Part shown: piece after piece, positions 16,207 to 40,000 of the stretch
How positions within the stretch are numbered: position 1 is the first letter of the stretch
How the letters are laid out: every line of letters starts with the position of its first letter
Origin: Amoebophrya sp. A120
Taxonomy: Eukaryota > Protista > Dinoflagellata
NCBI GenBank assembly: GCA_905178155.1
Contig: CAJINV010000001.1
Location: forward strand, 481,643-545,642
Direction: 5' to 3'
Length of the DNA stretch: 64,000 bases
Notes under the pieces: generated by a model
What the model was told of the DNA's origin: nothing
The model's database searches: none
What the model saw: only the letters and a program-made list of their open reading frames with translations
Program-made: the position numbers and the translations under genes

Positions 16207-16957
16207 TTTTACTCTTTTCTCTTTTCTTGAACAAGTAATTTCAATTTTTCTCGAACAACACCGTACTCAAATTCAAATCGCATAGGTGCGAAAATAACTC
16301 CAGGAGGTGGGAGTAGGAGATCCTTCACAACTGCAGACGCAGACCGTGCTATCGGTGATTTTCAACTACATGCAGTGACCCAGGTAAACGATAGTCAAAT
16401 CAATCAGACGAGGAGTTCAAAGAAGGAGTTCTAATCGACTTCGACGAGGACTCTCACTCTCTGGCCGGTGTGTTCTCATCTGGTCGAAAAACAATACTTA
16501 CTCAGCATTTCATCTACTCGTCACGACGTCGATACGCAAGGATGGCAAAATTTTTGCAGACGATATTGATTGAACAAACTCGCGAAACAACCGCTACCAG
16601 CAGTTAGTTCACTTATAACTTTTTACTTCGTCGTCTTCTTACCGTCACGACCGGATGAATAGCACATAACTAGTACGAGACTTTTCGACAATAGTAGTTT
16701 CGCATTTACAACCCTTCTTGGAACATACAGCGAACTCTTGTTTTTTACGATTCAAGTACGTACAGAAACTCAGAACGATCACATCAATCCAGGACACGCC
16801 AGTCGCGGCTGAGTAAAGTTGGTGTCTTTGCACCCCTAGAAGTGGTGGCCCTTCCTTCTACCTAGCAATGTCGCGTGCAGCAAAATGGTATTGTTTCAAA
16901 TTTATCTGAAAGAACCCCGGACGACTGGCCGTTACGACGTCAGGCTTGTTCTACAGA

Positions 16958-19900
16958 TTATTGATGCTTCCAGCGGTTCCAATCCCCAATCGCGGCGTTA
17001 AACCAGCCGTCCCAGCGGGTGCGCAGTGCCAAGTTGAAAGCGAAGCCGACCCGCGTGACCGTGCTGTTTTCGTGCGGAGGCACCTGGTGGATGAGCCAAC
17101 TCGGAAAGCACAGCACGTCGCCCTTCTCGGGGAAGATGTAGTAGGGCTGATGGAAGGGCGCGTTTCCCTGCCACCCGTAGGCGTTCACCGCGTTCCCGTA
17201 CCGCTCGTAGTCATGCATCACGTTCCGCTATCAACTGCAAATATGTCTGGGTCTGGAAGGATTGCAGCATTGTCATGCAGGTTTTCGATGACCCACGAGG
17301 TCTGGAATGCAGTACCTAGCATGACATCGGTGGTCTACGGGCAGGCTGTCCCGGTGGCGCTTTGGCCAATCGTACAGAGAAAAAACAAAAAATACAAGTT
17401 AGGTAGGAATACAATTGAAGGTTATGAATGAAGTCAAAAGTCGTAGAGACAGTATTAAAGTAGTTCCTACGGGCATGGTCACGATTGGGCAACAGAGGGT
17501 AGAGTCACGATTGGGCAACAGAGGGTAGAGCAACGAATTGTTACGCATCTATCCGCTGGTCAAGTACGAGGAAAACGAGAGCAGCATCGAAGAAGGGAAA
17601 GGCGCGCAAGCAAGGCAGCCCAGCAGCAGCAAAAATATCAAGACAAGAAGCAGACTACCGCCACCCGGGGTCCTACCCGACCGAGAACTGTACTGGTATG
17701 GGCCAACATACCATAAAAGGTACAGAAGAAGGGTAGGTGCTCGCGTAAAGAGAAAGATGACCAAACCTACAGCGCCCGAGGGTGCATGCTCACCACTGTA
17801 GGATAATCTCTTTACCGTCTGCCAGCGGACAAGCCACTGAAAAACAAGGCAGTGCAAAGTAAACAACCAGGTTGGAGCCAGCAGGCCAACCGCAACAAGA
17901 CCGCGAAGATGACAAATTCTGTGAGATGATCTCTATCATGCCTATTCCCTCTCAACTTGGTAAAAAATGTTGGCAATCATGCAACACAGACTCTTTGCGT
18001 GATTCAGATTTAGCATGACAAGTTGCAACCTTCCAGACATCCAGGGATTTTTGCAGGCCATATCCGCCCCCGCGGGTCCATCAGAGCGATGGGCGTCTTG
18101 TATCCTGTGTAAAATATACGTCCTCCCGCCCCAGCACACTTGTCGTGCATCAAATTCAAAGCGGCAGGCCTAAATAAATGTTTCGCATGCGCAGGGGCCG
18201 CCCCATGAGAGCCATTTTCTGATGTTATCTGGAAAGTTGTGATGAAGCTGGAATCAAGATAAGGTAGACGATTTGTGATATCACGTCTGCACAACTATCT
18301 ACCTCAAACAGCACTATATTACGAGTTCAAAAAAACTTGTCATGCGCGACAGCAAAAACTTGTGCCAATTTGCGTAGCCAAATCCGCATCTTGTATCTTG
18401 ACTATTGGGTCGTCGCGGGGACGTTCAATAGTTTACTCAGGATATCTTGGTCGGGTCCGTCACGGCGTACAGGACGCAGCTGACGATGCTGTCCTGGTGC
18501 GCGTGCGGGTTGTGCCGCCCGCCCTGCTTCGGGTACACCTGCACCCAGGCAAAGGGGTCGTACGGCTGCACCTTCTTCGCGTCGGCGAGCGTGTTTTTTT
18601 GCTCCTGAAAACTCCTCATCAGTTGCTTCTCCCGGTACAGCTTCACCGCCTTCGGGCTTCTCGGCACCTTAGTTTCGTCGGAATCCGACTCGGAGTCGGT
18701 CTTTTTGCTCTTCGCTGGTACTCCCGCCGTCCTGTTTGTTCCACCGAGCGAACCGCCAGTTGTAGTAGTATCACGGTCCTCTTTCGGTTGAAACATCGCC
18801 GCCTTTTTGTTCAGCACCTGCTCGATGTCGACGCCCAATCCGGTCCGCGCAAACTCGATGGCCACGCGCTCGATCGCGGCTACCATTTTGGTCAGAGCCT
18901 TGCCACGCTTCCCCCGGTACATCTCTTTCCACACCTTGGCCTTGCGGTACAGGTCCGGGTCTTTGACCTGCAGGCCGAAAAAGTAGTCGTTCAGCTCCGC
19001 CAAGTTTTTCGCACCACCGCTGTCGTCGGCCGCCGAGGAGGACGAGGAACTGCTGCCCTCGTTGCCCTCAAACTTCTTCCGCTCGTCCTGTTCGTATTTC
19101 TGGTACTTTTGCCGCAGCTCCCGCCGACTCAACTTGGAACTCCCGGTTTTGTTGCTCACGATCTCCTATGCGTTGCAAATATATTTTCTGGGTCGTCTGG
19201 AAAGTTCTGATGCAAGTCTGCGACTGCTGGACTCACTTGAATGTACAGCCACGCATCAAAAAATTTTGAGCTGCTATGGTTCTCGCGTAATCCCTATGGC
19301 AAGCTAGGTTTTTGCATGACAGGCAAGAGGTGCTCGTTTTCGTGCACATGCAGTTGTACAGACCTCACGGTCATCATGCCAGACAAGCATGACAGATCCG
19401 GCATTTCCGTTTGTCGTCCAGAGCCAGACATTATATTTGCAGTTCATATCTCCTCCAGGTTGTGGTCGTCGGCAATCTCCTCGTATTTCGCGATCGCTTC
19501 CCGGGCCAGGTCGTCGATCACCTCCTCGGAATATCCTGTGCAAAAGTATCGTACTCGTACAACTACAAATGCGAGTCTTATTCTTAAGGTAAATCTGCAT
19601 TACAAGTTTTATCGCTCATACTGAGGGAATTTCTAATGCATTTATACGAGTACGATACTTTTGCAATGCATACGGAAATGTCCTCGTCGATGATGTTTTC
19701 AATCCCAATGTTGGTCGGGAAAATCTGCGCCACCTGCATTTGGTTACTGAGAGAAGTAGTCACACCGCTTGTAGTTCTCGTGTCCGGTTCTTGATCTTGA
19801 TCTTCACTCCCTGCTGTCAACATCTTCTTGCCGCTGCTAGTGCTAGAGGACTTCTGCTGTTCGATGTCATTTCCTGCAGTTGCTCCTGCTGCGCCGGATG

Positions 19901-22900
19901 TAGCAGTCGCACTCTCCTCCTCCGAGGAGGACGCAGATGCCGTGGCTTTCTTTTTCTTTTTGCTCTTCTTGTCTTTCTTCCCCTTCTTCGATTTTTTTTC
20001 CGTCTTCTCCTCAATTTGGTCCTGCGATGCAGCCGGGAGCAGGGAAAGCTGCAGCAGATTTTTGTTCGCGGTTGTGATGAAGGAGCGCTCGGCCATGTGG
20101 TCCGCCACGAAAAAATCTGCTAAAGTCCACCGTTGACTCGCTTTGTTGATTTTTGGCAGCATCAACACTGAAAAGTCCGGCTTGCTCGGCCACATTTTGG
20201 TGTCGTCGTCCTTCGAATCTTTTACTACTTTCGACGCCAGGGAGTTCATCATCTTCTCCCCGCATGAAGATTCTTCATCCGGGTCGTCGTCGTCTGCGCT
20301 GCATTTATTGTTCGGGGCGATTTCATCGCTGCCACGACCTGTTTTTGAGGACAGCACTTTCGTACAGGACAAAACCTGCGACTGTGCCCCGCCCTTCTCG
20401 ATGCGTTTTTTCACCACCTTCATGGCCCCGCGGAGCCACCGGATCCCCCGAACCGGTCCGAAACCCTGGTTGAACAGCCGCGCGTACAAATACAAGTTGC
20501 ACTCGACCCGGTTCGCCCGAGACTGCAGGATGTGCCAGGCGAGTTTGTGGGGGTTCCCAACGGCCTTTTTGCCCATCTCGTCTCGCTATGAAATGCAAAT
20601 ATGTCTGGGTCTGGAAGATTCTAAACTTGTGATGCTGTGTCTGGATTCTAAAAAAATTTGTATTGCATGATCTTATTTACCCCTCAACCACTATACCCCC
20701 TTTACGACCACTACCTCAGGGCAGGATCTCGGGGGGATGGGGTCAAGCTCTAACGGGGGTCGGACCCGAGTGAAACCGTTAGAGTGGCTGCATGTCCTGG
20801 TCGAATCCGGAAATTCCATGAGCAAGGTATCGTTTCCAATGGTAAACCAGGCAAACACGACGAACAGACAAAGACGAGGGACATGGGCAGAGCAAAGGGA
20901 TAGCTCGCTGGGGTCTCCTGCAGCTGAAAAATAACGTCGCGATGCGACTGGACTGGGGTCTCCAGCAGTCCACCAAAAAGCCCTATTGCAATGGCCGGGA
21001 TAGGGACCCCACCTAGGACTACGCACGACAGGCCACGAAGAGACGATGCCGAGGAGACACAGCGACGCTCCGCTCCGCTCGACGCGACAAAGCAGCAACC
21101 GCACCGCTCGTCGAGGATCGCTCCACCCCCGCGCCAAACCCCCACGAACGACGCCAGGACGACAGAAAGACGACCGCGAGCCATAAACAACTCCCCTACG
21201 AGTAAACACCCCTCACTCGTCTATCCAGCTGGTAAGCACCGTTCAGTACTCTGTGAGACGCGGGGCTGGCGACCCGAACTCCCGCACCGTAATCAACCCG
21301 CCATCCATCGCCACCACCACCTCCGCGCAGCTTGGATCCGCAAAGCCCAGCCGCATCGAAAACGTCGCACCTCGCAGGAGTAACGAGCCGCACAAACGCG
21401 CTGCCAGCGCAGCTACCACGCAAAACCTGAGGTCAATCATATGGAAAGGGGTTACCATAAGGCTACGTAAGGGTCAGAGGACAATCCGCTGCCACAACAC
21501 AGACCAAAGGATTAGGAGGGGCGACAACCACAAACGAAGAAAAAAAAGGAAATATGGGTCTGGTACTATGATCTTATCATAAGTATTCATGTGAGTGGGT
21601 GAGAGTGTGAGACAAACGAAAAACAATAAATAAAAAGTCCCTGAATTTGTATTGCATGACCAGCAATAGGACTCCAGTTTGTGCTACTCGGAGAAGACAT
21701 TTCTCATGCGGTGGAGGCATCACAAAGCCAGCGAAAAATCTGTGATGCTAGAGCATGCATCACAGACATCATGGGCCATTCAAAATATGCATGACAACAA
21801 TGGCAATCTTGCAGACCCAGACATTTTTGCAGTTGATACTCGCGCTTTTGCCACCACGAACTCCGGGTCCGCGAACAGCCCCACTTGCTTCGACACCACC
21901 GCTATCAACTGCAAAAGTGTCTGGGTCTGGACCTTTGCGCGACTTGTCATGCCGGTTTTCCATGACCCATATGATCTGTAATGGAGGACCTAGCATAACA
22001 GATTCCGTGAGATCACTATCATGCCTATCCTGCATGAGAAACTGCCTCCCAACTTCAACAAAAGTGGACAGCATTTGGTAATCATGCAACACAGATTTTT
22101 GCGTGATTCAGATTTAGCATGACAAGTTCCAACGTTCGAGACCCAGACATATTTGATTTGATAACCTCCGCCGCACTGTCCCGCTTCTTTCGGTTGTCGC
22201 CAACTAAAGAACCGGGCTTCAGCTTCCGCTCCGCAGCCGCGTCCTTGGCGGGGTCCTGTTTCGTCCGGGCCCAGGTGCTGAACACCCGGTGCGTGTGTTC
22301 TTGCGCGTAGGGCTCCAAACAGTGCTCCGGCTGCTTCCGCATTTCGCGGCCCGCGTCCGGGCCGATGTCTTTCCCGTACGAGTCCTCGGCGTCCCCCTCC
22401 TGGATCAGGCTCAACCGCTTATCAAAAGCAAAAATCCCTCCTCCCCATATCGAAAAGGTATGTTTCCGAAAATTTGCGTTGCTGATTTGAGGTCGCAAAT
22501 CACATTTGTATTGCAAGAAGACAAGGGCAGAAGCTTCCGCCCCACTATGGGAGCGATTTGCCATGCTGTTGGCCCTAAAAGTGACCCGCTTGCCATGCTG
22601 AACAACTAGACCCATTCGCCCCTACCTAGCCTGGGGATTTGGCCGCAGTGCCTCTCTGCAATACAAACCTGATTTGATGTGTACACAAATCCAGCATCAG
22701 AAATTCCGTTTTGATATGGGGAGGGGGGATTTTTCCTTTCGATACCGCTCCTCGATCGCCTTCAGATCGCTCAAATACTTTTGCCGCTCCTGTTTCGCCG
22801 TCAATTTCACTTCGTGTTTCTCCGCGACTTCTGCTTCCTCGTGTTTGGCGTTCGTAGTTGTACTTGATGCTGGTGAAACCACCGTCGCCTGCAATAGCTT

Positions 22901-24221
22901 CTCCTCGCTGGCTTGGAGTCCGCAGGAGCTGGCGAACGCCTTCTGCACGTACAGTTCGAAGCCCTTCTGCAAAAACGCGATGCCCCCCTCGATCTGCAGA
23001 AAGGGTTTTTCGTCCGTCCACGCCGAGGTGAGCCAAAGCTCCCCCACGCGGAGCCACAGCTCCGGGTTCGTCAGGTCGAAGTCCAAGGCACCGAACATCT
23101 GGCTCCTATCAAGTGCAAAAATGTCTGGGTCTGGAAGAGTGCAAACTTGTGATGCGCATTTCAGAACACAGAAAAATCTCCCATGCATAGGCAGCAAAAG
23201 TTCCCACTTTCTGTCACCAGAGTCAGGGATTTGTCATGCGGATTCGGCATTGCGGAGGCTTCTCGAAATCTGTGATGCTAGAGCTTCCATGCCAGACCTT
23301 CTGTGTCATGCAGAAGCAGCATGACTCTTCCAGACCCAGACATCTTTACAGACATGCAAGAGTTTGTCATGCATCTCCCGGATCACGCTACTGGTCAGGT
23401 CTCCAATGCACGCAAAAGCATTACAGGTTCTGCGCAGGCCTCCTGATGTCTAAGTCTATCCCGCATGAGAAATAATTCCCTATTTGCGTAGCAAGAAATG
23501 GGAAGGTTTTGGTGCTATATGCAACACAACTTTTTGCCTGTTCCAGAAATCGCATGACAAGTTCCAGTTCTTGTTCCAGACCCAGACATATTTGCATTTG
23601 ATAGTTCCGGGCCTCAAACAGTTTGGCGAATGGGTCCTCCTGCACGACGTCGCGCCTTATCGAATGCAAAAATGTCTGGGTCGGGAAGAGTGCCGGACTT
23701 GTCATACAGGTTTTTCATGACCCATGAGGTCTGGCATGGAGGGCATAGCATGACAGATTCCGTGAGAGTTCTATCATGCCTGTCCTGCATGAGAGACTGC
23801 CTCTCGATTAGGTCAAAAGTGGACAGCTTTTGGTAATCACGCAACACAGATTTTTACATGATTCAGATGTAGCATGAGAAGTTGCTTTTTTCCAGACCCA
23901 GACATTTTTGCATTTGATACGACCCATTTTCTGCCGGTAGGAGTCGGGGAGTCGGTCCAAGGCCTTCCGCAAGTAGAAAGGCGCGATCTTCTGCGACCAC
24001 TGTTTCACCCAGGTGACGCGCTGGCTCTCCAAGGCCTCCGCCGTGGCGGGGACCTGCAGGGGGTTCGCCGAGGTGGTGTTCTGCTGCGCCGCCAGCACCG
24101 TCTCCTCCGCGTTCGGGTGGATACGCCACGTGTTGCCCAGAAGCCGCCCATCCTGCGCAAACGACACGCGGACGAAGCAACAGAAGAAAAGGGCAGATGA
24201 CATTCGGAGAAATGACCTCAT
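16958..24221 (-). CDS. Secreted multidomain protein with C-terminal TIGR02466/2OG-FeII_Oxy_5-like oxygenase, paralog 1 (about 1006 aa, 9 introners)
   Basis: Signal-like MRSFLRMSSALFFCCFVRVSFA; motifs AWVQVY..HNPHAHQDSIVSCVLY, LMDPRG, GDVLCFPSWLIHQVPPH..RVGFAFNL. Span minus (elements plus one DR each) = 3021 nt, a whole number of codons. Confidence 0.85.
17327..17908. mobile_element. Unknown nested insertion with 6-bp TSD ATGACA
   Basis: ATGACA at 17321-17326 and 17909-17914; the host sequence resumes directly after the second copy. Confidence 0.8.
17478..17529. repeat. Perfect 26-nt tandem duplication GTCACGATTGGGCAACAGAGGGTAGA
   Basis: Two adjacent identical copies. Confidence 0.95.
18101..18444. 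mobile_element. Introner, family C-like (diverged)
   Basis: TATCCTGTGTAAA..ACGTCC / GGACGT..TTTACTCAGGATA; DR TCTTG. Confidence 0.88.
19167..19448. mobile_element. Introner family A (diverged)
   Basis: Degenerate family A TIRs; DR TCTCC. Confidence 0.88.
19532..19672. mobile_element. Introner family B (141 bp)
   Basis: Family B TIRs; DR CGGAA. Confidence 0.92.
20587..21838. mobile_element. Introner family A with a nested 973-bp insertion
   Basis: DR CTCGC; the two halves are collinear with 29143-29408. Confidence 0.9.
20671..21643. mobile_element. Unknown nested insertion with 16-bp TSD (retroposon-like)
   Basis: AATTTGTATTGCATGA at 20655-20670 and 21644-21659; no TIR; A-rich right end. 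Confidence 0.88.
21903..22163. mobile_element. Introner family A
   Basis: Family A TIRs; DR ACCGC/ACCTC. Confidence 0.88.
22420..22744. mobile_element. Introner family D
   Basis: Family D TIRs; DR CCGCT. Confidence 0.93.
23107..23603. mobile_element. Composite double-length family A introner (497 bp)
   Basis: DR GCTCC/GTTCC; internal TIR remnant CTTCCAGACCCAGACATCTTTACA at about 23327-23350. Confidence 0.85.
23658..23919. mobile_element. Introner family A
   Basis: Family A TIRs; DR degenerate (CGCCT/CGACC); removal restores the frame. Confidence 0.86.
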
Positions 24222-24858
24222 GGACGATGAGATATAAACGTGCTTATGCGACGACGAGGAAGAGGAAACCATTTTCATAATACAGTAGCAATTTTTTTTT
24301 CGACAGGAAATACTGAGAGTTGAAAAAATCGCTGTTTGGGGTGAATCTTGAGAAAAAAAACCTGACTAATCTGTGAGTGAAAAGGCAAACAACAGCCTTA
24401 TTAAAGAACTATCGAGAAAACTCCGATCATTCCATGCTCGTCAAACAATCTTGTGCCCCGTAGGGCGGTACTACTTAAGCGCGACAACTTTTCTTTTGGC
24501 CCACGACGATATTGATCTAGTTACAACACAGCTGCATCTTCTGAAGGAATTTTCCCAATTATCCCACTTCGGACGAAAGAAGGACGTTGGCACAAGCGCT
24601 TCCACCTTCGAGACGATCTGCTATAATTTCATCTCTGTTTAAACGCAAACGTTGAGTAGTAAACTGTTCTTTCTTGGAATTAAATCATAGTGGTCCCTGT
24701 AAACGTCGCAGAAATTATCCTGAGCTACTTTGGATCCACAGACTTTTGCTGTGCCCCGACGAGTCGATGGGAGAGCAGTTCTTCTGTGACGTATTATACC
24801 TAGCAGCAAAAATGTAGTTCGTTCTACTGATTGACACGAAAATTTTCTGTACTTCGCC

Positions 24859-27800
24859 TCAGATTTTCGCTGGGCTGGTGCCCATGGCATTGTAGAACCA
24901 GTTGTCGAGGCGGGAGGTCATGGTGAGCAGAAACGCGATGCCCACCCGCTCCACGTCGCTCTCCTCGTGCGGCGGCACCATGTGCACGAGCCAGCTGGGA
25001 AAGCAGACCACGTCGCCCTTCTTCGGGAAGTAGAAGTAGGGCTGGTGAAAGGGTGCGCTCGGCTGCCATCCGTGGATAAAGGGCTTCGCCGGCTGGTCCC
25101 CCATAGCATCGTACTGGGCCCACACCGATTTGCCCCGCGGGTCCAGAATCGACAGCGGCGTACGCGTATCAACTGCAAAAGTGTCTGGGTCTAGAAAATT
25201 GGATTTGGAACTTGTAATGCTAGCTTTACATTCCTGGGAAACGTGTATTGCATAACCGACAAAAGCCGCAGCCCTTTTTGTCATTTCATTTCATTTCATT
25301 GAGTCTCTCATGCGGACTGCCTATGAGAAAGCGCTCCGGAAAGTTGTCATACTGGGCTGCATTTGGAAGCCTTTCCATCATGCACATTTTAGCATCACAA
25401 GTTTCCAGACCCAGCCATTTTTGCAATGCATAACGCGCCGGGTCGGTCGTCAGGTAAAACACGCAGCTGACGATGCTGTCCGTGTGGGTGTGCGCCTCGT
25501 GGTGCCCCCCGGCTTTGCTGTAGACCTGCAGCAACGCGTACGGGATGTAGGCCTGCCGCCTCTCCTGGTCGAACCGGCTTTCCGACTGGTACTGCAGAAA
25601 GGCCTGACCCGGGTTGGCGAATTTCCTTTTCTTCTTCAGCGCGACGGAGGAGGAACTCGTTTTCCTCTTCGCATCCACTTTCTTGGAGTTCAAAGTACTA
25701 CCCCCTCCGTTCGCGGCTTGCCACTCGTCGTCGTGCGCATCCCGATCTATCACAGGAAAAAAGTGTTATAGTTACACACTCGTTGGAGTTTCTGCATCAC
25801 AAAGTTGCTCGACATGGCTAAGAAAACCTGTGATGCAAAGACTGTAAGGGAAAACAGGAATGAAATGAGGCTGGCAAGCATAATCTGCATGACAGATGTT
25901 GTCTGTCCTGCTTGTCTCCCATCTTCAGAGTGTGTAACTGTAACACTTTTTTCTCACGATACGATCTTCATCGTTCTCACTATCGCCGTCCCCCGTTGCG
26001 CCCCGGTCTTCGAAGGCGAGCGGCATCAGAGGCTCGTCGTCCTATCAAATGCAAATATGTCTGGGTCTGGAAGAATGCAGGAGTATGTCATGCAGATTTT
26101 GCATGACCCATGAGGTCTGTGATGCATGCCCTACCATCAGAGATGCTGTGAGGGCTTTCTAATGCTCATACCGCCTGAGAAATGCCCTCTCCGTGTAGCA
26201 CAAATTGCACCTCTTTTTCTGTTCATGCAATACAGATTTCATGTAGAGTCCAAAGGTAGCATCGCAAGTTGCATCCTTCCCGACCCAGACATATTTGCAA
26301 CGCATACGTCCTCGTCGTCTTCAATTTCAATCTGTTCTATCCTGAGTAAAAACGTACCCACACCAGAGTTGTAATGCAGATTTGCAAAGACAGGAAGACT
26401 TGTAATGCGCATCCCCATGAGAGCCATGCCCAGTCGTGTTTTGGAATGTGTGATGCTGTGAACAGGATGAGCAGATGAATCTGTGACGCGGCTGCACTTG
26501 CTAACCTGCACTACCCTGCAGAGCGCAACTTGTCATGCGTGACTCACAAAACTCCTAGGTTTGTGTTGCAAAATCCCCATCCTAACTCTGGTGTGGGTAC
26601 GTTTTTACTCAGGATATGTTCGACGTCCTCCTCCTCGCCGTCTGCAGCAGCTTCCCCCGTTTTGTTTCCGAAAAATTCGTTCCGGAAAGAATCCCCGAAA
26701 CTAGCGTCGTCGCTATGCATTGCAAATATGTCTGGGTCTCCTGGAAACTTGTGATGCAAGTCCGTGAACAATAAGTGCTCTGTAATGCGCCGCCAAGCAT
26801 GACAAGTTTTTTGTTTTTCGTGATTCTGTGATGCGCCTTTCGCATGAGCAACTGCGCTTTTGCATGACAGGCAAGAGGACCTCTTGGTGGCCACGCGGCA
26901 ATACAGAGTGCACAGACCACGTGCCAGACTGGCATGACAAATCTCGCAATCTTCCAGACCCAGACATATTTGCACTTGATAGTCGCCGCCGCGAAACAAG
27001 GAGGACTGTTTGTTGAAATACCGCTCCAGGTCGATGCCCAGAACGTTGCCCGCAAACCCCAGCGCCACCGACTCAAGGGCGGCGACCACGCTGGTCATTT
27101 CGCGCGCACGGTCGCCGCGGTAGAGCGAAATCCACTTTTTGTTGGTCGCGTACTGCCGCGGGTGCGTGCTCTGAACCGAGTAGAACCGCCCCTTCACGTG
27201 GTCGTCCATGTCTGCGGCCGTGATTTTTTGCTTGGTTTTGGTCTTCTCTTTGATCAGCTTCTTTTCCTTCTTCGCTACCTTGCGGTACTTGGTCACCGCT
27301 AGGTCCCGCAAATTATCGATGACTTCTTCCGATACCTTGGTCCCCATAATGTTCTGTACCGCGACGTTTGTCGCAAAAATTTGCATGATCTGCATCTTCT
27401 TCTTCTTGGAAGTTCTTGCACTACTTGTTTGCGCTTTCTCTAGTACAACTTCGCTGCTCGTTGCAGTGCTGCTGGTGGCCTTTACTTCCTTTATTTTTGC
27501 AGTCGTTGTAGTTTTAGGTGCTTGTTCTACTTTCCCTGATTTCTTTTTTGCATTTTTCTTACTGCTTGCTGCTGTTTTTGTACCAGTAGCAGTCTTCTCG
27601 TCATCAACTGCCTCCCCTGCCTCCTTCCCCGCGACTGTCGACGTCCCTCGCCTCGCTAGTTCGCGGTCGACTAAGGTACGTCCTGAAAACTTTTCCAAGA
27701 TTCCCGTCGTGACAAAGTCGGAGTTGTGGAAGGCCAGGTGGTCGGGGGGCGAGAGCCGCACCAGTCCGAGCGCCGCCTTCTGTACGCAATAGAAAAACTT

Positions 27801-30504
27801 CGCAAGTGTAACAAGTCTGTAAAAATGCAAAGCATGCCATTTGCCAGTCGTGCTGGCCAGCCATGAGGTCATCTTTCAACATATGTCGTGCTTTCACATA
27901 CTAATTAGCTGTGCATGACAGGCTTTCTCTGTCATGCAGGGCAAATACTTCGCCCTGCTGTCACTCCACGACGCTACACGAACAGAGTTTTCATCTCCTT
28001 CGATATTTTGCAGTTGGAAGGAGGCACAGGAAAACGCCGGCTTGTCCAGCACGGCTATCAAATGCAAATATGTCTGGGTCTGGAGGGATGCAACTTGTCA
28101 TGCTACCTCTGCATCTTGCAAAAATCTGCGTTGCATGAGATGCACCAAAAGTTGTCCAGCATTTTTGACCAAGGCCAGAGGCAGTTTCTCATGTAGGAGA
28201 GGCATGCTAGAGATCTCACAGAATCTGTCATGCTAGGACCTACATTCGAGACCACATCCATGCGCCATGGAAAACCTGCATGACAAAATTCGCAATCTCC
28301 CAGACCCAGACATTTTTGAAATGCATAACGGCTACCGCGTCGCCGTGCTGCTTCCGCCCCATCTCGATCCGGTCCTTGACCTGTTTGGCCACAAATTTCA
28401 CCCACCAGACCCCGCGGGACAGGCCGACGCCGGTGAGAAACGATTTTCCGTACAGCAGCAAGTTGCACTCCACGCGCCGCGCGTTTTGCTCCAGCAGATA
28501 CACGGCGAGCTCCCGCTTCGTCACGTTCGCGCCCAGCTCCTCGCGCATCTCGTCGAACACCCGCTGCGCGTCCGAGTAGTACCGCATCTGCTGTGCCAAG
28601 GCGGCCGTCACGTCCTTCAAATTGCTAGCAGCGTACCAGCTGATGTGCTTCCCATTCGGAGGCAGGTTGTAAATCGCCCCGGGCTATCAAATGTAAAAGT
28701 GTCTGGGTCTGGAAACTTTTGATGCTGGGTGGCGTCTCATGATGAGGCCACAAATGCTGGCTCAGCATGACAAGTTTCTGAGCTTCTAGGTGTTGCCTAT
28801 TCTGCATGACAAACTGCGTTTTTGCATCACAGAAAAATGGAGCTCTTGGGTAACGTGCATGACAAATTCTCGAGTCATGGCAGACAAGCATGACAAGCCT
28901 GGCACTCTTCCAGACCCAGACATTTTTGCAGTTGATACGGGCTTCTGGCTACTTTCCTGCACACTGGGGTGGATGTTTGCCGTCTTCACCCAGGCCGACT
29001 GCGCTAAGTGCTCCGTGTCCCAGGGCCGGTCGGCACAGTAGTCCGGCACGAATTCCACCTCTAAGCCCCCTTTATTCTTGATGTCGTCCTCCTCCGCCTG
29101 CGCGTTCCCATACATGTCCTCAGCCATGTCCAGCAGGTGGCGTATCAAATGTAAAAGTGTCTGGGTCTGGAACATTCTAAACATGTGATGCTGTCTCTGG
29201 ATTCTGAGAAAACTTGTATTGCATGACCAGCAAGAGGACTCCAGTTTGTGCTACGCGGAGAGGGTATTTCTCATGCTGTAGAGGTATCACAAAGCGCTCT
29301 AAAAATCTGTGATGCTACGGCATGCATCACAGACATCATGAATCATGGGAAATATTATGCATGACAAATCCAGAAATCTCCCAGACCCAGACATTTTTGC
29401 ATTCCATATGGTGGTCCAAACCCCCAAACTGCATGGAGAACAGCATCTCCTCCTCGGCCGAGCCCACCTGGGGGGCAAACGCGTGGTTCGACACGGTGGT
29501 GCCGTCCTTCGTCTTTTCGTTGCAGTTTTGGATAAACTCGCTGCTGAGCCCCTCCTCGAACACCTTCTCGGTGTACAGCTCGAACCCCCGACTCAGCATG
29601 GACAGGCCCGCTTCCACGCGCATCACCGGCTGCTCCTGCACTACGTCGGCCGTGAGCAGCATGAGTTCCCCGGCGCGGAGCCACATCTCCGGACTGTGAA
29701 CGTCCAGGTCGAGCGCGGCCAATACCTGCGACTCCTATTGTAAGGAAAAATCTCCCCTCCCTATATCGAACAGGAGATCATTTGTGATGCTGGATTTGCG
29801 TAAGTACACAAATCTCCTTGCATTGCTAGAAGGCCGAGAGACGCAGAGGCGGCCTCGGTCGCAGGCAATTTGTCATGCTGTTTCCCGTTTCCTGTTGCTA
29901 TCTGTCATGCTGAAGACGCAAGGCTTACCCACGCCAGCCAGCACTAGAGTCTGCATCTCGATCTCTTCCGTTGTAGCATGACAGTGGGATTTGTGATCAC
30001 AAACCATGCTACACAAATCTCCATTTGAGCATGGGGAGGGGAGATTTTTCATTGTAATAACTCCGCTTGGAGAATCATGATCCCCGGGTCCCGCTTGTCC
30101 TCGTTTTGCCGCGCCTTTTCCTCGTCGCCCATCTGGTCACTGTATTTGCCCTGCGGGCCCCAGTAGTGGAACACCTCCGCGAGTAAGTCCAGCGCCCGCC
30201 GTAAATACCCCGGGGCGTTCTTCGCGGCCCACTCTTGGATCCAATCGGTTCGCCCCGCGAACGTTTGCAGCTCCGAGGGGCTCATGCGGCCCAACTCCTC
30301 TTCGGACATACTGCGCAAGTTCTTCCTCGCGCCGCCCACTTCGCTGTCGTGGATCTGCCACGTGTTGCCGAGCATGCGGGAGGGCGAGAAAGGGTTTATT
30401 GCACCAACTGGGGGTACTTCTTCTGCATGTTGTTCAAGACCTTTCGCCGCCACCAGAAGGTCCCAGAGAAGGAAGAACGCGAAATAAACACACGGACTCA
30501 ACAT
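24859..30504 (-). CDS. Secreted TIGR02466-like 2OG-Fe(II) oxygenase protein, paralog 2 (about 988 aa, 10 introners)
   Basis: Signal-like MLSPCVYFAFFLLWDLLVAAKG; motifs HEAHTHTDSIVSCVFY, ILDPRG, GDVVCFPSWLVHMVPPH..RVGIAF; spliced length 2967 nt, a whole number of codons. Confidence 0.85.
25167..25432. mobile_element. Introner family A
   Basis: DR ACGCG; interior resembles the reverse complement of 32132-32385. Confidence 0.9.
25748..25961. mobile_element. Introner family F
   Basis: TIR TATC...GAAAAAAGTGTTATAGTTACACACTC / GAGTGTGTAACTGTAACACTTTTTTC...GATA; DR CGATC. Confidence 0.9.
26043..26306. mobile_element. Introner family A
   Basis: Family A TIRs; DR CGTCC. Confidence 0.92.
26338..26616. 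mobile_element. Introner family C
   Basis: Perfect long TIR TATCCTGAGTAAAAACGTACCCACACCAGAGTT; DR TGTTC. Confidence 0.94.
26714..26981. mobile_element. Introner family A
   Basis: Family A TIRs; DR GTCGC. Confidence 0.92.
27783..28005. mobile_element. Degenerate introner (family G)
   Basis: TACG..GAAAAACT / AGTTTTCA..CGATA; DR TTCTG/TTTTG; removal gives FQLQKAALG. Confidence 0.7.
28056..28327. mobile_element. Introner family A (inverted relative to 1937-2201)
   Basis: Family A TIRs; DR ACGGC. Confidence 0.92.
28685..28937. mobile_element. Introner family A
   Basis: Family A TIRs; DR CGGGC. Confidence 0.92.
29143..29408. mobile_element. Introner family A
   Basis: Family A TIRs; DR TGGCG/TGGTG. 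Confidence 0.9.
29736..30059. mobile_element. Introner family D
   Basis: TATT..GAAAAATCTCCCCTCCC / GGGGAGGGGAGATTTTTC..AATA; DR ACTCC. Confidence 0.9.
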
Positions 30505-31037
30505 CTTTTTCCGAGTCACTATATTGATACAGATACTGTTACCGAGACACGACTTTTTCTTCAAATACAAAACTTAGTTTTACTAATCCATCTTTCCGGC
30601 CCAGCTGTTGTACGTGGAAGGATCTGTCACATTGCACCTGGACCTGTATTCTCCTTCTGTGTTTACTTCTGTTCGAGAAATCAGCCACCTACCAAACGCT
30701 ATTTAGGCAGAAACCGATCTTCCCGGCTGCAACGATGAGCGCAACAAGATTTTTGGCAACTGTATGAAAAACGAACATACGTACATATTTATAATTCCTA
30801 ACATGTATTTCTGTTTTGCTGTTCCTTCACTTTTTTCGAGGGACGAGATGCAAAGGCCAACAGATGTAAGTAGCAATAAACACGATCAAGGCACAATCTT
30901 ATCTCTTCACATGTTTTTCGTATCCACAACCACAGCTCGTTTTTTTTGCAAAAAATGATGACACAACGCAAAAAATCTTTCAGTTTCAACACATACTCTT
31001 TCAACAGAACTTAAACTGATTCTTAATGATACTCCCC

Positions 31038-34000
31038 TCATGCCACGGCCGCCGCACCGTGAAACCAGTGGTCAATGCGATTGGGCGCCATCAGCAGAAA
31101 AGCGATTCCCACCCGGTAGCCCGTTTCCTTCCCGTGTGGCGGCACCTGGTGCACGAGCCACGAGGGAAAGCAGACCACGTCCCCCCTCTTATGGAACTGT
31201 CAGGATCGAAATCGACAAAGTTGAAATGATTTGCCATGCATAAAATGGATGCCATTTGTAACCCAGTTTCCAAGTGGCGCATGACAAAATTGGGTTGTAG
31301 AGCCGAAATCCAGTTTGTCATGCTGGTTGGGAAGGTAGGACAACTTTTGTCATGCTACTTTAGCAGCTCCACTTCCACCCCTCAACAGGCTTACAATCTG
31401 TCTCAATTGCCTACTCTGCAACACAGGCACTTTGTCGGTTGCATTTTATGCATGAAAAATCATTTCGACTCTGTCGATTTCGATCCTGACACTCCCATAC
31501 TTCTTCGGAAAAACGTAATACGGCTGGTGGAACGGCGCGTTCGGCTGCCAGCCCGCGTTGAATGGCACTGCCGGAGATTTCTTGTTGTTCTCCTTGTAAT
31601 CGAAGAAAACGCCAGGCTGTCCTGTGGCAAAAAGCTATAGCAACTGCACATCCAAGGACTAGGACGATGAAGTACCGCATGTTTCAATCACAACAACTTG
31701 TAGTAGTTGTACCATCCGCGTGCTTGTGAGTGCTTACTGTGTCTATGGATACAACTGCGCCTATGGATACAACTGCGCCTATGGATACAACTGCGCTCTT
31801 TCTGTGTTAATGTGCATCTACTTCAACTATCGCATTTATACGCAGACTTTGTATACTTACGTACAAGAACCGTGCTCTGCTAAGCTATTTCCCCGCTGAT
31901 ATCTTTCCGCGCGGGTCCAGAAAAATCAACGGCGTCTCCATTCCGTCGCTTCTCAAGTAAACCGCACAGCTGACAATGCCGGAATGGTGCGTGTGCACCG
32001 GGTGCTGCCCATCTTTATCCGCGACCAGGGTCCAGTGAAAAGAAATGTAGGGCTGCCGCCGTCTCGGGTCGAAAAGCGTCCGTTCTTGGAACTCCATAAA
32101 CTCCTGGACTAAATCGGACCTGCCGCGTACTTATCAACTGCAAATATGTCTGGGTCTGGAAATTCGTGATGCTGAAATGTGCATTAGTGAAATACTTCCC
32201 AATGAAGCCAAGCATGACAAGTTTTCCGGACACTTTCTCATGCGCAGTCCGCATGAGAATAAACTGCCCTTTTGTATAACAAAGGAGGTGTCGTTTTGTT
32301 AGTCATGCAATACAGATTTTACAGCAACGTAGGACTAGCATCACAAGTTCAATGTTTCCAGACCCAGACATTTTTGCAATCCATAGTGCTTCATTTTCTG
32401 TTCTTTCGGGTTGAAACAGAGACAACTGGTTCAAAGACGTCACGGTGGACCGGCTGCGGTTTGTATTCTATCTTGTGCAAAAGTATCGTACTCGTACTAA
32501 TTGCTTTTATGCATTACAAATCTTTTTCCTAAGGCAGAACCGCATTACAAACTTAATTTGTAATGTTAAGGAAATTTGTAATGCAATTTTTTTTTTTCCT
32601 AGGCTCCTAGCGTGTCGGTTTTGCGCTGTTCTTGCTTTTCTTTCTTTTGATTTTCTTTTCATTTTTTTTTGATTTTTTGATTTATTTTGTCATCTTGTGC
32701 TGATTATTTTCTTGTCCTGTGTTGTTCTTTTTCTCTTTATCATTTTCTTTTCATTTTTTTTTAATTTCTTTTGCGCTTTGTTTGATTTTTCTTTTTCTTT
32801 CTTTTGTTATCGACACGCTGAGAGCGGGGGGCGTTTCACGAAGAAGAGCGCGGGTATACTCGGCGTTCCCGTGGCCATTGGCCCTACCTTTTTGATATTC
32901 TCCGCGGCGAATCCTCGCGGGGTGGCACCGTCGCGTCCTTGGCAATCGATCTCTGTGCAAGCCCCTTCTGCTTCCCTCCTCCAGGCTTAGGCCTCCCCTG
33001 AGCAGTAACAGAACCTCTTTCTCCTCCAGACGTAGACGCGGCAATGTACACCATGACCATACGAAGCAGGCCTCGTAGAGGCAACGCGCAACATGACATC
33101 ACGAGCTGAACAATCCTCATTTTCATTTTTTGTTTCTATAATTCCTAACGCAGCTATGACGGTGTGCTTCTTAGTAAGGCAAGCACATATCAATCTAAAA
33201 GCCGAGGCAATGCATTTGTGAAATAGCGCCTAAAGCTTACACTTACTACACTTCCTACACACGCACACACATACGCTTTTATCTTCTTCGCTTACTCTGT
33301 TACTTTTATCATGCTCTACTCCATGTCAATATCTGATAAATTAATTACTCTACTTTTCTGCTCTCCGCACCTGAAGCGGGCGGTCCCTGTTTTTCCTGTT
33401 GCTTTTTGTGTTGAGACGCTCACCAAGTGGTCTACGAACATTTCCAATACTACATCTGACGACTGCGGTCATCGTTTCACCCGCTACGACTTCAAACGAC
33501 TTCCTTTCATTCCGACGAGCAACGAGGCTGAAGCGAGAACGATAGACGAAAAAATTTGAAGTACCAGGTCCCTGTCTTACTTTACTTCAACTTTCTTTCT
33601 TCTTCCAGGGGACTAGGCGACAAAGCCACGCACTATGTACAAGGTTATTCTAGGGCGCTGTTTGGTACAAGTATAGATTCTAATTTTTCAGCAGCGAGCG
33701 GCAAAGTCACCAAGATCTGGCAGTGGGGTTCCCTCTTTGAAGTCATCGCGGGATGCGCGGCAGGGACCTGTTTGATTAATTTTTTGTGATTATGAATATA
33801 CTTTTTGCTTCATCTTCATGTTATGAATAACTGCCTTGCTACTTCATAAATAAGTGTAAGTCGACATATTTTTAGAAAAAGTGACAAATCAGCATTACAA
33901 ATTGATGATAAGTATAAAAACGAGATCAACTCTCGCGCGTGACCTTCTTCATAGGGCGCGCTCTTTCGACCTGCCCTGTGCACTGTGTTGCCCGAATACA

Positions 34001-37000
34001 AGGGCTCGCCGGAACAGTAAGACAGAAAATAGCCTCAGGGCTAAACTCGTGCCTCCGCCCCAGCCCGGCGGCTAAGTAAAGAAAGAGACAGGGATCTACT
34101 TAGAGGGACAGCTCTTCTCCCGGCTCCAGCAGTCCGTGAGCTGCGCTGTAGCTAATATCTAATGCCTCGTGGCGCTCAGGCTCACAGAAGCCGACAGTGC
34201 ACAATAAAAACAAAAAGCAGGCCTGTAGTACTCGCTACAATAATACCATCCTACCCTCAGCCCGATGCTGTGGTGAAGAGAGGCCGGAGGCGACTCCTAC
34301 TAAGCCCGACCAGTATGGCATCCCGCGCAGCGATGCCAGACCATGCCCAGTCGACGAGTAAGAGGGCGCAGTCAGTATGGCGCCAGAGGACGAAGCAAAA
34401 CAGCGAAGACCAACAGGACGCAACCCTCTCAACACCTAGGCCTGCTCCCCCGGCCGAGGTATCACGATCTCGCAGTACATTCTTTTAGGCAGAAATCCTC
34501 TACCCGCAGCGCCAACAACTACGCTCTTTACTGCTACCCCCGCATTACAGTCTTTAAGAATTCCGCTGCAATATGTCTACACAAACACATCCAAACTTGA
34601 GACATTCTCCTATGTTGAGCCGCAAAATTACTATACCTGGTATCTTCATTCATCTTGACCTATTCCGTCTTCGTTCTCAGCCCCACTCGTGGTTGTTGAT
34701 TTCGTTTTTCTTTTTGTTGCAAGCATTTCTCGAGTTGTTTGTTTTTTCACTTGTGATGAATGCGCTCCTGTAGTTTAGATTTTTTGAAGTTTTTCATTTT
34801 TTTCAATTCATACTATCTGCCACTGCTTATCATCTTCTCCTGGTGAGATATTTCGCTGGAATCTTATCTGTAAAAACAAAACTGCCTGCCATTGCATCCA
34901 TTTTCTCATATGAGTTTGGTAGTTTCTCATGTTGCTTTGCTGCCTTTTCAATTGTAGATCCTATTTTTTCAATGCAGTTCCCCACCCTTTCTCGAAAGAA
35001 GTCATGGGTTAGCTTTGCTTCTTCATCTACGACAAACCCCAACACCCTCCTCGGGTTTCTCAAAAGCTCCCGGCCTATAGTAGGCGGGCAGCTCTCAAAA
35101 CCAAAGTGGCGCACGCGCGGCTTTTTTACCTCCGGACACTCAAAGAGAATATGATCAACACCACACTGGTGGGCCTTCAGGCATTTGCTGCGTTTTTGTT
35201 GCATTTTTCCATCGACAAAAAGAATCTCGCCACAGCCAAGATGAGGCTGAGGCGCGATCCCCAACCAAATCCAAAAGTAGAGCAGTTCCGACCCCCGGTT
35301 GGGAAAGACCCCTACGGGCGGTCTGAACCCCCCCAGAGACTTCGCGCGCTCGCGCAAGTACTCCGAGGCAGAGGAGCTCTTTTCGAGATTTTCAGCCAAT
35401 ATTCTTTTCAAAAGTAGGCGCCGCAGAATAGGCGCCGTAATCATCTTTTTATAGATCGGCCGCTCTGCTTCATCGCTGTAGTCCTGCACCCCATCACCCC
35501 ACATCTCCTTGTAGATGTTCGTGAGGTGATCCGCGCAGTCGTTGGCTATTTGGCCGCAGTGCCCCGGTGTCCACCTGAAGTGAAACCATACCTCTTCCTC
35601 TTCGTTCGGTTTCTCCCCTATGCAGGCGGCTTGTATTTGCTCCATGTGCTTCATTATGCAGTGGATCATCTCGTTGCTGCTATCGTTAAAGCACTCCAGT
35701 GCCTGCACTATGCTGTTGCTGTCCAGGAAAAAGTAAAAACGCCGAAGCATGTGCTTGATGTGTGGGCTAGTCCTAATCTTCTGCTCTATTTCTTTTAGTT
35801 GCTGTATCAGACCAATGCACTCCGCATCAAAGGAATCTGTTTGCACATCTTCTAATGGTGCGCAGATATATGCCCCAGATATCCAAACTGGGTCCGGAAA
35901 GCTGCCTTCTCCTGGCTGCTTCCGTTTGTAGTTCACCCGTGCCTCCGTCCCCAACGGGCTCCCACCACCAACTCGCCCCCGCCCCCACGCCCAGATTGCG
36001 ATCCTTATCCACTAGTCCATCCGTAGCTGATACCAGATTCCCCTGCGACTTCCTTAGAAGCCCCCGCACCAGTGCATTATGTGCTTTCGCGACTACTCTT
36101 CTCGCTTTCCCTAACTCCTCGCCCTTCAGCCCGGAAAGTTGTCCCAAGCCCATGTCCTCCCCTATCCTGTCCATCGGCCTGGCATCTAGGTTCACCCCCC
36201 TCCAGAAGATCTTTCCTATGTAGAGCCGGTTTGTGCTAAAATGACTATGAACATCTGCAAAATTCTTCTTCGACATATGCCTAGTCGTATCTGTCCACGC
36301 GACATGCTTCCCATCCATGCCTAGCAAGAACTTTACTGGGTCGCTGTCATCTTCTTTTTCAAAAACTTTCTTTACATCCTCGCAGGGCGCTTTTTCTAGT
36401 GGCCAGAGATCCAGCTGCGCACCTTTGTAGTAGAGCATCAAGTTCTCTACTACAAAGAGCGAGTGGATATCTGGTATGCCTGCACAATGATGCAAAATCG
36501 TACTTGGTGTCTGCTTCGGCAGCATTGCATGGCCCTTCAAATATTTCGAGGTGTCTTTTTTTCGTTGCAACTTGTTCTGCTTCTTGAAATACTGAAAAAA
36601 AGGCACGCTGTTCGACAATATCGCGCTATATATTAGTGAGACATAGACATCTATTCGCGCTGTCAGGCGTAAGTTTTTGAGGCGGGCTACGCTTGAGTTT
36701 TCTTGTGTCATCTTTTTCCTCATTATTTCATAGTGCGAGGAAAAGTGCCAAGTCCCATCATAGAAAAAGCCAAGGGATCTGCTTGCGTCATTGACTTCTA
36801 CCTTTTTGTCCACCCCTACATCATAAAAAACCGCTTCGGACTTAGTTTCCTCGAAAAAGATAAGTTTCTCCCTCCCCGTACGCACCAGGTCCTTTTTTAG
36901 CTTTGTCACTTCTTCCATGTCCCCTATCCCACACTGGCTATTATCATCGGAGTACTGTGCTTGACTTCCGTCTTCATTTAGCACTGCCGTCTTCTTTACC

Positions 37001-40000
37001 AGCGGGGTATTGTGGATATTGAAGCAGCCCCCCGAGAAGGGGCTGCCTTGTGGCATACCCGGGGACAGATGCCAGTATCTGTCCCCGGTCTTGATTCTGA
37101 CGGTTCTAAAACTAAGCCACTGCACAGTGGCAGCAGCTAGATCTTCCGGGACCCCTAACTCATGCATAGTCTCCAGCAGTTTTTGATGTGAGACAACATC
37201 AAAACCTGCCTCATTGTCGTTCAAAAGTAAGAACTTCCTCATGCCTTTTGTATTCATTCCTTCCGGTGAAAATAAATACTCAAGTATCGAAATTGCGCCA
37301 AATTCTTTGCAGAAGTTCTTTCTGTATGCAAGCGAGAAGAGGGGTAGTTGTGGTTTTGCATTTTCAATCCGTTTAGCCCCATTCCACTGATATCCCTCCA
37401 GCCAAAGGCAGAGCCTTCGGTCCTGTATCACCTCCCACACCTTCGCATAAACTGATAACAGGGAAACTGGCCGGAACAGGCTCTCCGTGTAGGGTTGCCC
37501 TTCGGTTTTCCCGACCGGGGCAAGGATAATCTCCCTCCCTATTTTAGGGAATTCGTTGTATTTGATTAAAACATAATAACACCTGTAGAGACACTCCCAC
37601 CCTGTTCCCGTCAATGCTTTCACCAACTCGTGCGTGACCCCGTCCCTCCCTGGGCTCTTGTTGCATTCCAGTTTTCGTATAGCCGCCGCAAACTCCGTTC
37701 GCGTCAGCTCCCAAAAGTCGCCCGCCTCTGCTTTAGCGTGCGAGCGGTCCCTAGCGTCCTTGCAGGCCTTTTCCTTCCACTCGCTTTCGTCCGGTACAAG
37801 AAAACCATTCTTCGTGTACACCTGGTCCGGTCTACCCTTGTACTGGGCCGCGAAGTAGTTTACTACATCTCCATGCGTAGCTGTAGCTTCCCCGGGTATC
37901 GGCTCGGCCGTGAGCTTCTTCTTTTTGATTGCCTTCAGCGCTGCTTCATTCTTACGCTTTTCAATCACTTCTACTGTGAGCGGCGGGCACAACTTGCAAT
38001 TTATACTAGTACGATGCTTTTGCAATGCATATATTCGACGTGTCGGCCATGATGTTCGTCGTCCCGCTACTGCTCGACTCCGCCTCGGGAACCAGCCCAA
38101 ATTTTTCCGCCCGAAACAGGCTTGCCTTTTTGTTCAGCACCGTTTCGTATCAACTGCAAATATGTCTGGGTCTGGAAGAATGCTAGTTCGTCATGCTTGT
38201 CTGGCATGACTTGAGAATCTGTGTTGCATAGGCACGAAAAGTCCCCCTTACCTGATATACAAAAACGCAGCTTGCCATGCGGAATACGTAACATTCGGCA
38301 GCCAAAAAATTTGTCTTGCATAGCTGCGTTTTGCAGTGCGTCTATCATTCGCTTTTAGCACTACAAGTTTCCAGACCCAGACATATTTGCAATTCATATT
38401 TCGACGTCCATGCCCAAGACCTGGTCCGCAACCTGAATCGCGACGGCCTCGACGTAGGCTATGGAAGCGTCAGGTTTGAAATCGACAAAGTTGAAATGAT
38501 TTGTAATGCACAAAATGCGACACAGAGACTGACTCTATTGCAGAGGACGCAAGGGAGGCTGATTCTAGTACTGGTAAGGGTGAGGAATTGGGTTGCTGAC
38601 TAGCATGACAGGGAGGAGCCATCTTGCTCTAAACAGCATGACAGACTTCCTTCAGAGGCCAGGAAAATTTGTCATGCGCCGATTGGAAACTGTGCTGGGT
38701 CCAACTGGTATAGATTTTACGCATTGCAAACTATTTCAACTTTGACGATTTCAAACCTGACACATCCATATAGGCGAGCAGCTGGGTAAAGACGCGGCTG
38801 CGGGGGCCCTGGTACATGGACTTCCACTTCTTTCCCTCCGCCTTGCCGGAAAAAAACCGCGGATTGTTTTGCTGCGCCTGCCAGAACTTCTGTGTCACCA
38901 AAAGTGTCGACGGGGCTGCAGCGGGTGGAGTAGATTTGATATCTTGTTCAACATCACTGTCTTTATTTGTCTTCTTCTTCTTTTTGGAGGAATCACCTTT
39001 CGCAGCTTTAGCGTCCTCTTTCGCCTGTTGCTTCTTCTGGACCTGCTTTCTCGCTTTCTTGTACTTCGCTACAGCAGTGTCCGCGAGGTCATCAATCGTT
39101 TCTTCCGAGAAAAAACCCTGGGCGAGCAAATTTTGCACCGCTATTTTCGTCGGAAACACCTGCGAAATCCGAAGCTTTTTCTTCTGGTGCACCGGTTTTT
39201 TGCTACTTGCCTTGTCAGCGGAAGATGGGAGTGGAGCTGTTGAAGATGGGCTATGAACCGCTGCATGAGGACCTGCGCTGGCGGCAATGTCGCCATTTTC
39301 TTCTTTTTTCAGGACCTTCGCATTTATTTTCGCTTCAGAAGAGGAAGACTCCTTTACCTCCTGCTCGTTGATCATGTTCTTGGAACTTTTAGGTTTCACA
39401 TTTTCATCCTTCTTTTCGTCGTTCATCACATGCGCTTTTTCATCACTTCTTGCAGCGTTATCGGACAGGAAGAGAAAATCCGACAGCTCGACATCTACGT
39501 TCTTATTCTTCGCTTTTCGGAGTCGCGGCAGCGCAAGCAAATCCCGCTGCCGCGTCAATTCTTCACATTTTAATATTTTCATGTTGCTACGAACTCCATC
39601 GTTAGCTGGTCTTTCAGCAACTGAGGGTTCCTTCTTCTCCTTCGTTTTCTCTTCCTCAAACCGTTTCGCCACCTGCGTGAATGCCCACTTGAGCCACCAC
39701 ACCGCGCGGCCGGGTCCGAGTGCGGTCATGAACGAGTGCGCCAGCACGTGCAGATTGCACTCCACGCGGGCCACGTTCTGCGTCAGCACGTGCATCGCGA
39801 TTTCTTGGTTTGTCGCGTTGGCCTCCAGATTTTGGTCGTCGTTCCGCGCGTTCGCGAGCACCTTTTCCATGGAGGAGTAAAACCGGCCCTGCTGGGACAG
39901 GGGCCAGGTCAGGCTCTGCAGACTGTTGATGCCGTACCACTTTTTCAGCGGGTGCTTGTAGATCTCGCCCGGCCTCAAGTCCGCCAGTCTCCCCTGGAAG

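Follow-up and report, generated by a model that had tools for sequence, protein, structure and literature searches.

The locus and its introners

We analysed a 64,000-nucleotide stretch of the genome of Amoebophrya sp. A120 (contig CAJINV010000001.1, positions 481,643 to 545,642; hereafter the window), in which three inserts, two short ones and a long interspersed nuclear element (LINE), lie inside introners, repeats that behave as introns. The window is gene-dense, and its minus-strand genes are interrupted by repeats, some 140-340 bp long, whose ends read TAT...ATA. Inserts 1 and 2 share a minus-strand gene that encodes a C-terminal 2OG-Fe(II) oxygenase domain (PF13759). Curation of 39 introner candidates, 27 of which have an exact 5-bp flanking repeat, led to the removal of one (56349); the 38 used here amount to 10,282 bp when empty, or 18.1% of the window; within non-coding DNA the share is 30-44%. 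Their ends are terminal inverted repeats (TIRs) that start with TAT and an A run and are bordered by direct repeats of 3-5 nt. This agrees with the A120 introners in the available text of PMC7789003, where the inverted repeats consist of TAT, about 7 nt and an A run, accompanied by short direct repeats, and the elements are non-canonical introns in dense arrays; the accessible part of PMC12130899 gives the same picture. As the original prediction had cautioned, a shared internal motif is dense within introners: their 10.3 kb contains 65 copies and the remainder of the window 7, an approximately 40-fold difference in density. The features discussed below are as follows (TSD, target-site duplication).

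17229..18062, family-A introner with insert 1; TAT...ATA ends, 5-bp repeat TCCGC
17321..17326, plus strand, left copy of the insert 1 TSD, ATGACA; right copy at 17909-17914; junction directly after GCATGACA
17327..17908, minus strand (as deduced), insert 1; 582 bp, without protein match, TIR or poly(A)
20587..21838, family-A introner with insert 2; TAT...ATA ends, 5-bp repeat CTCGC
20655..20672, plus strand, left copy of the insert 2 TSD; 18 bp, C>T at 20671; right copy at 21644-21661; junction directly after GCATGAC(C)
20673..21643, minus strand, insert 2; 971 bp, 5'-truncated at its right end, from a small site-specific family
32469..38031, short-family introner with the LINE; TAT...ATA ends, 5-bp repeat TATTC, 150 bp when empty
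32582..32597, plus strand, left LINE TSD TGCAATTT, which merges into the poly(A) tail (a run of 11 T, 32587-32597); right copy at 37995-38002
32590-37994, minus strand, insert 3, a LINE with TSD TGCAATTT
32598..34829, minus strand, LINE 3' untranslated region, 2.2 kb
33768..34636, minus strand, GT-AG intron in the LINE 3' region; 869 nt, present in DNA, skipped in RNA-like contigs
34830..37994, minus strand, LINE open reading frame (ORF) 2, 5'-truncated; reverse transcriptase (RT), RNase H-like domain and C-terminal Cys/His motif, endonuclease part missing

Three nested insertions

The original prediction held that three inserts are nested in introners at a shared internal motif. The nesting was borne out: all three hosts have exact 5-bp flanking repeats, and when each insert is removed together with one copy of its duplication, elements of 246, 263 and 150 bp are left that align over their full length with sibling introners, so that all three are true nested insertions. 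The predicted boundaries of insert 1 (582 bp, ATGACA at 17321-6 and 17909-14) and the 8-bp LINE duplication TGCAATTT (32582-9 and 37995-38002) were likewise confirmed, while insert 2, given as 973 bp with a 16-bp duplication, had to be corrected to 971 bp with an 18-bp duplication containing one mismatch. The motif stood to the base at the junctions of inserts 1 and 2 but not at that of the LINE, which lies in another register with the motif on the opposite strand. The three inserts are mutually unlike in sequence (best E 0.49). All of them appear co-oriented with their host genes (four of four if the metagenomic copy described below is included; the orientation of insert 1 is deduced), and their first junctions all lie 5-6 nt past a central GC, a regularity recognised post hoc. 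Loose overlap with the motif is common: in introners, a randomly placed window overlaps it in 14% of cases at 6 bp, in 30% at 16 bp and in 17% at 8 bp.

The occurrence of all three inserts in introners has a p value of 0.006 against all window DNA and of 0.03-0.09 against non-coding DNA, depending on which of three ORF cut-offs is used, and these values were computed before ascertainment bias; from the window alone, the case for enrichment of inserts in introners is weak. The claim that every clearly bounded secondary insertion falls in an introner is not secure, because candidate inserts outside introners occur at 55.5-59.3 kb. There, 55417-59317, adjoining an assembly gap, contains five copies of a 60-80-bp exon end with a GT donor. 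Mostly unrelated spacers of 0.7-0.9 kb with A-rich ends lie between direct repeats that span the exon/GT-intron boundary and match exactly over up to 59-62 bp, and no introner surrounds them. To judge from its sequence, this array could represent insertions with long duplications outside introners, or a tandem duplication. Within it, the element-like stretch 56346-56940 has internal inverted and tandem repeats and the introner motif and is without TAT...ATA ends.

Insert 2 belongs to a site-specific family

The 18-bp duplication with a single C>T change is the preferred reading of the insert 2 boundary because sibling introners have GCATGACC and other copies read C at position 20671; this C is present in the siblings, in the metagenomic copy L001 and in 439 of 527 units of depth in dataset X1. 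L001 was the one match in a metagenome scan made for insert 2 only, with a 21-mer wholly inside the insert as the query, so that the scan was blind to the flanks. It contains a 313-bp insert 2 copy in a family-A introner of a different gene, whose Walker A motif marks it as an AAA ATPase, presumably Cdc48. The 3' junction base and both boundaries of the 18-bp duplication are the same in L001 and the window, and each duplication has its own host's variant, AATT in the window and AATC in L001. The host arms are 80-81% identical (55/68 and 141/177) as against 94% for the element (299/318; Fisher p = 5e-7). Chance would place an insertion at the homologous base for about 2e-4 of window junctions and about 1e-3 of introner junctions. 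Both truncated copies end exactly at the start of the right duplication, with 3 nt of microhomology at the truncation point of L001. Positions 1-2005 of L001 have at least three introner families in common with the window (up to 92% identical), and its source would, on this resemblance, be a close wild relative having both the introners and the nested element.

Further copies appear in assembled contigs. In record 11 of X3 (listing for the gene with inserts 1 and 2), an introner arm and the element align with 37 differences and 16 gaps and the contig continues for 272 nt past 21644, where record 5 of X1 and record 15 of X5 likewise break, and the observed lengths of the element are 313 bp, 971 bp and at least 1.24 kb. 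At 20676-20698 the depth of X1 is about 500, at 21094-21598 about 160 and in single-copy DNA about 44; among the matches listed, three X1 contigs with a summed depth of 439 have the insert 2 junction in common. This suggests a family of roughly ten copies that all have the same left (3') end and differ at the 5' end, contig depth being a rough measure of copy number and not a copy count. Copies that arose independently at a single base and combine a constant TSD with differing 5' ends are what a target-specific element without long terminal repeats (a non-LTR element) leaves, and site-specific insertion of the insert 2 family is well supported.

Insert 1 and the class of the two short inserts

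The insert 1 junction lies in the same register as that of insert 2, GCATGAC[A/C]|, a register that accounts for 0.32% of introner junctions. Another copy, in record 10 of X3 (same listing), aligns with 17319-17644 with 2 differences and is then unlike for 70 nt; it has 8 flank bases in common with the window copy, in one contig. Given its 6-bp duplication and its lack of likeness to insert 2, insert 1 is taken as a second family on suggestive evidence, and its junction suggests that it too may insert site-specifically. The genome contig collection gave no match for insert 1.

Neither short insert has recognisable coding content. A Pfam search in five frames gave no match, and the longest open frames were not beyond those of shuffled sequences (23% and 10%). 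A search of 17200-38100 against Rfam for a tRNA-, 5S- or snRNA-derived head of a short interspersed nuclear element gave no match, the 5' end of insert 2 being truncated away. An LTR (TG...CA) or TIR structure of inserts 1 and 2 was ruled out by eye. Both are A-poor and tail-less, in contrast to the A-rich sense strand of the LINE.

Insert 3 is a dead LINE

Insert 3 shows the marks of a non-LTR retrotransposon: a LINE-type RT, a poly(A) 3' end, a TSD, 5' truncation and no terminal repeats. Its RT has QYSDD at 36957 and matches PF00078 at E 1e-6, with 29.1 bits against a cut-off of 29.6, and the RT profile matches human L1 ORF2p at E 1e-12. The RNase H-like domain that follows has catalytic-type motifs, and its best sequence and fold matches are nearly all RNase H, none reaching E 0.001. 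Relative to the 65%-identical relative P0003 this domain is split by a frameshift near 35.9 kb, and by its sequence the element is a dead LINE truncated upstream of the RT. DNA contigs without differences cover both junctions and the frameshift (records 7 and 8 of X1, LINE-region listing), and among the matches listed no second copy of the LINE appears at 88% identity or above, most bins having a depth of about 42-50. A DNA contig of roughly double depth matches 32852-32891, 33631-33670 and 35305-35345 in order, which hints at a diverged LINE relative elsewhere in the genome.

P0006, a full-length relative from Amoebophrya AT5.2 (32% identical), carries an N-terminal APE domain that falls short of the curated cut-off (PF14529, E 2.5e-4), and the relative P0014 carries one too; the endonuclease part is missing from the window copy. 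A PDB search with P0006 gave no significant match. The I group of APE-RT-RNase H non-LTR retrotransposons comprises I, Tad1, Ingi and R1. The window element and its relatives together suggest the order APE, RT, RNase H and Cys/His of such elements, along with a poly(A) tail, 5' truncation and a short TSD; unlike them, the window LINE has a spliceable GT-AG intron in its 3' region. That intron (33768-34636) lies in the element's own sense, which is odd for a retrotransposed copy, and is skipped in two RNA-like contigs (record 10 of X3 and record 20 of X4, LINE-region listing). A 4-bp repeat at its ends would allow either later insertion or cryptic splicing.

Named A120 proteins make up two of eight LINE relatives looked up and rank among its closest ones, and identity to relatives outside Amoebophrya is about 25%. 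Since one relative is found in AT5.2, whose introns are 99.98% canonical according to the available text of PMC7789003, the LINE lineage is not likely to depend on introners. The viral contig collection contained no LINE relatives and no matches for the introner end, and the genome contig collection had no match for the introner end either. At the junction, TGCAATTT|A, the tail lies on a T run and the motif is on the other strand; the site resembles TTTT/AA, given as the L1 insertion preference in the part of the literature available to us. From this configuration, the LINE was likely primed at a T-tract, as a separate lineage that landed in the introner without exact aiming. Because it is single-copy and T-tract-primed in another register, its apparent targeting to the introner motif is unsupported.

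Removal of the nests from transcripts

X3 and X5 are one sample, putatively RNA (none of the matching runs listed is recorded as such), and the introns are present in the DNA run. Record 9 of X3 (listing for the gene with inserts 1 and 2) and record 12 of X5 reproduce the exon chain 16800-24373 without differences. The gaps of the former equal the small exons (49, 59, 78-79 and 33 nt), the length arithmetic agreeing within 1 nt at every joint, and 17224-18062 and 20582-21838 are thus absent. RNA-like depth inside insert 1 is 6.4 and 2.3, in an ordinary introner 4.1 and 3.0, and in exons 40 and 29. For the LINE nest, the RNA-like culture does have a LINE junction. Record 30 of X6 (depth 21) and record 22 of X4 (depth 12) join the stretch at 38032, preceded by 879 and 25 nt respectively, which fits the form from which the LINE-bearing introner has been spliced, the upstream pieces not being displayed. 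Records 17 and 18 of X4, at depths of 25 and 17, begin in the exon, enter the introner and cross the LINE 3' junction, and record 9 of X3 in the LINE-region listing (depth 13) lies in the LINE 3' region; because these three retain introner or LINE sequence, the LINE-bearing introner is likely removed only in part. The mere 56 partial reads of raw-read run X8 (90-95% identity) all fell on fragments of introners and were uninformative. An RNA fold of intron 2 pairs its two ends, a result without a shuffle control. Removal from transcripts, which marks A120-type introners, is therefore seen for hosts 1 and 2 and partially for host 3, and the idea of introners as spliced-out safe havens survives for the two small nests, while the LINE introner looks leaky.

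Mechanism and alternatives

Taking these results together, we consider it probable that the insert 2 family is site-specific and likely relies on an endonuclease supplied in trans, that insert 1 likely uses the same register, and that the LINE likely belongs to a separate, T-tract-primed lineage that reached its introner with no exact aiming. For insert 2, a sequence-specific endonuclease from a partner element would nick just 3' of GCATGAC(C), the 3' end of the element would be copied from the nick by target-primed reverse transcription that stops at variable points, and a second-strand cut 18 bp away would produce the fixed duplication. Target-primed reverse transcription, predicted for all three inserts, finds support for two: the LINE has a poly(A), a 5' truncation and an RT, and the insert 2 family has a constant 3' end and differing 5' ends. 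The introner would be recognised by its paired ends, so that a nest of about 1 kb could still be removed from the host mRNA, and the 5.4-kb nest would likely be removed less completely. Several points weigh against this account. No enzyme could be tied to inserts 1 or 2, none of 152 fetched proteins matching at E 0.01, and both inserts end without poly(A). The duplication of insert 1 measures 6 rather than 18 bp, and its polarity and second copy depend on one contig. The size of the insert 2 family is read from contig depth. None of the X3/X5 contigs among the matches listed has this locus's own junction with insert 1 or insert 2, and the spliced contigs may derive from a polymorphic empty allele in that culture.

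The fixed ends of insert 2 also bear on how the inserts came to lie in introners at all. A protein bound to the introner motif might tether unrelated elements with low-specificity nucleases, a proposal that suits the roughly 40-fold motif density, the contact of three unrelated inserts with the motif and the post hoc spacing of their first junctions from the central GC. We think it unlikely, since, in two hosts, the insert 2 duplication begins and ends at exactly the same bases, as sequence-specific endonucleases (Tx1L, R1Bm) give in the available parts of their descriptions, and since the binding protein is purely putative. The single motif-specific endonuclease originally proposed for all three insertions is already disfavoured and, to our minds, improbable: the LINE lies in another register and on another strand, its junction is of the T-tract/poly(A) type and its sense strand is A-rich where inserts 1 and 2 are A-poor and tail-less, it has neither 3' sequence nor other sequence likeness in common with them, it has relatives in AT5.2 with that strain's almost wholly canonical introns, and the duplications measure 6, 18 and 8 bp, even though all three overlap a motif copy (joint chance about 0.7% for inserts already in introners, again post hoc) and all inserts appear co-oriented with the host genes.

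Passive accumulation, in which insertion is random, exonic copies are purged and nested copies are easier to see, draws on the p value of only 0.03-0.09 against non-coding DNA and on the candidate inserts at 55.5-59.3 kb. It cannot explain why independent copies share both the insertion base and the 18-bp duplication, and L001 refutes it for insert 2 provided that the L001 copy is independent; as a general account we give it very little credence, and for the LINE alone it may hold, with the chances about evenly balanced. L001 speaks in the same way to the notion that an ancestral introner with its insert was copied as a unit and lost internal sequence later. Introners are mobile, such copying would make the junction the same everywhere, and L001 has its 3-nt microhomology; against this, the hosts are far more diverged than the elements (80% versus 94%), each duplication matches its own host, and both truncations end exactly where the right duplication starts, and we regard this origin as scarcely credible. 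A broader idea, which we hold to be doubtful, extends the site-specific reading: introners would be a dedicated niche for a guild of motif-cutting, host-sense hyper-parasitic retroelements, transcribed from host promoters, which would leave inside the excised introner RNA as their template and, by breaking motif copies, would curb the spread of introners.

Relation to known systems

The available parts of PMC6719617, PMC1950540, PMC1919474 and PMC4494074 describe Tx1L, a Tx1-clade LINE found in Tx1D, a non-autonomous piggyBac element from Xenopus laevis, and the crocodilian Tx1-Mar and SINEU-3 in Mariner-N4. As in those pairs, a non-LTR element or its non-autonomous passenger here occupies a defined position in a non-autonomous DNA transposon that exists in many copies, so that harm to the host is limited. 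Unlike in Tx1L/Tx1D, the target is a transposon that acts as an intron in expressed exons, so that the nest leaves the mRNA; the endonuclease of the site-specific family is deduced rather than seen; and the LINE, with its RNase H-like domain, gives no sign of site specificity. The likeness to Tx1 drawn here concerns the mode of insertion.

We found no published description of retroelements that target introners, and the accessible text of PMC7789003 and PMC12130899 describes none nested at a fixed introner site (no match for "nested"). In the part of the supplement of PMC12130899 (Gozashti et al. 2025) available to us, the best peptide matches of A120 fam16, fam6 and fam2 are LINE/I-Jockey, RTE-BovB and Tad1, with coordinate values of 7-8 kb; going by these matches, the three families may be nested LINEs, and some A120 "non-LTR introner" calls may be LINEs in TIR introners. 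The introner pipeline in the available text of PMC9860276 filters out secondary insertions.

Other features of the window

The minus-strand region 16961-41699 holds tandem paralogous genes with the C-terminal 2OG-Fe(II) oxygenase domain (two confirmed by Pfam), whose introner positions differ from gene to gene. A compound introner of 497 bp at 23107-23603 consists of two fused family-A units in opposite orientation that have lost their inner ends; it has one near-perfect 5-bp repeat and is removed as a single intron. An introner-free open frame of 1538 codons on the minus strand (42241-46857) is unusual for the window, and a GC-rich block (65-70%) at 51200-53200 differs from its surroundings.

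Significance

The feature is real and partly new: a site-specific retroelement family landing in self-removing introns. Retroelements aimed at other transposons are known, and a target that is spliced out gives this parasite of a parasite a low-cost place inside exons. The nests also probe how introns outside the GT-AG class are recognised, since a five-fold lengthening of the interior does not prevent removal, a sign that the ends are what is recognised, whereas a 37-fold longer interior appears leaky. If found, the partner endonuclease of insert 2 would be a new sequence-specific enzyme.

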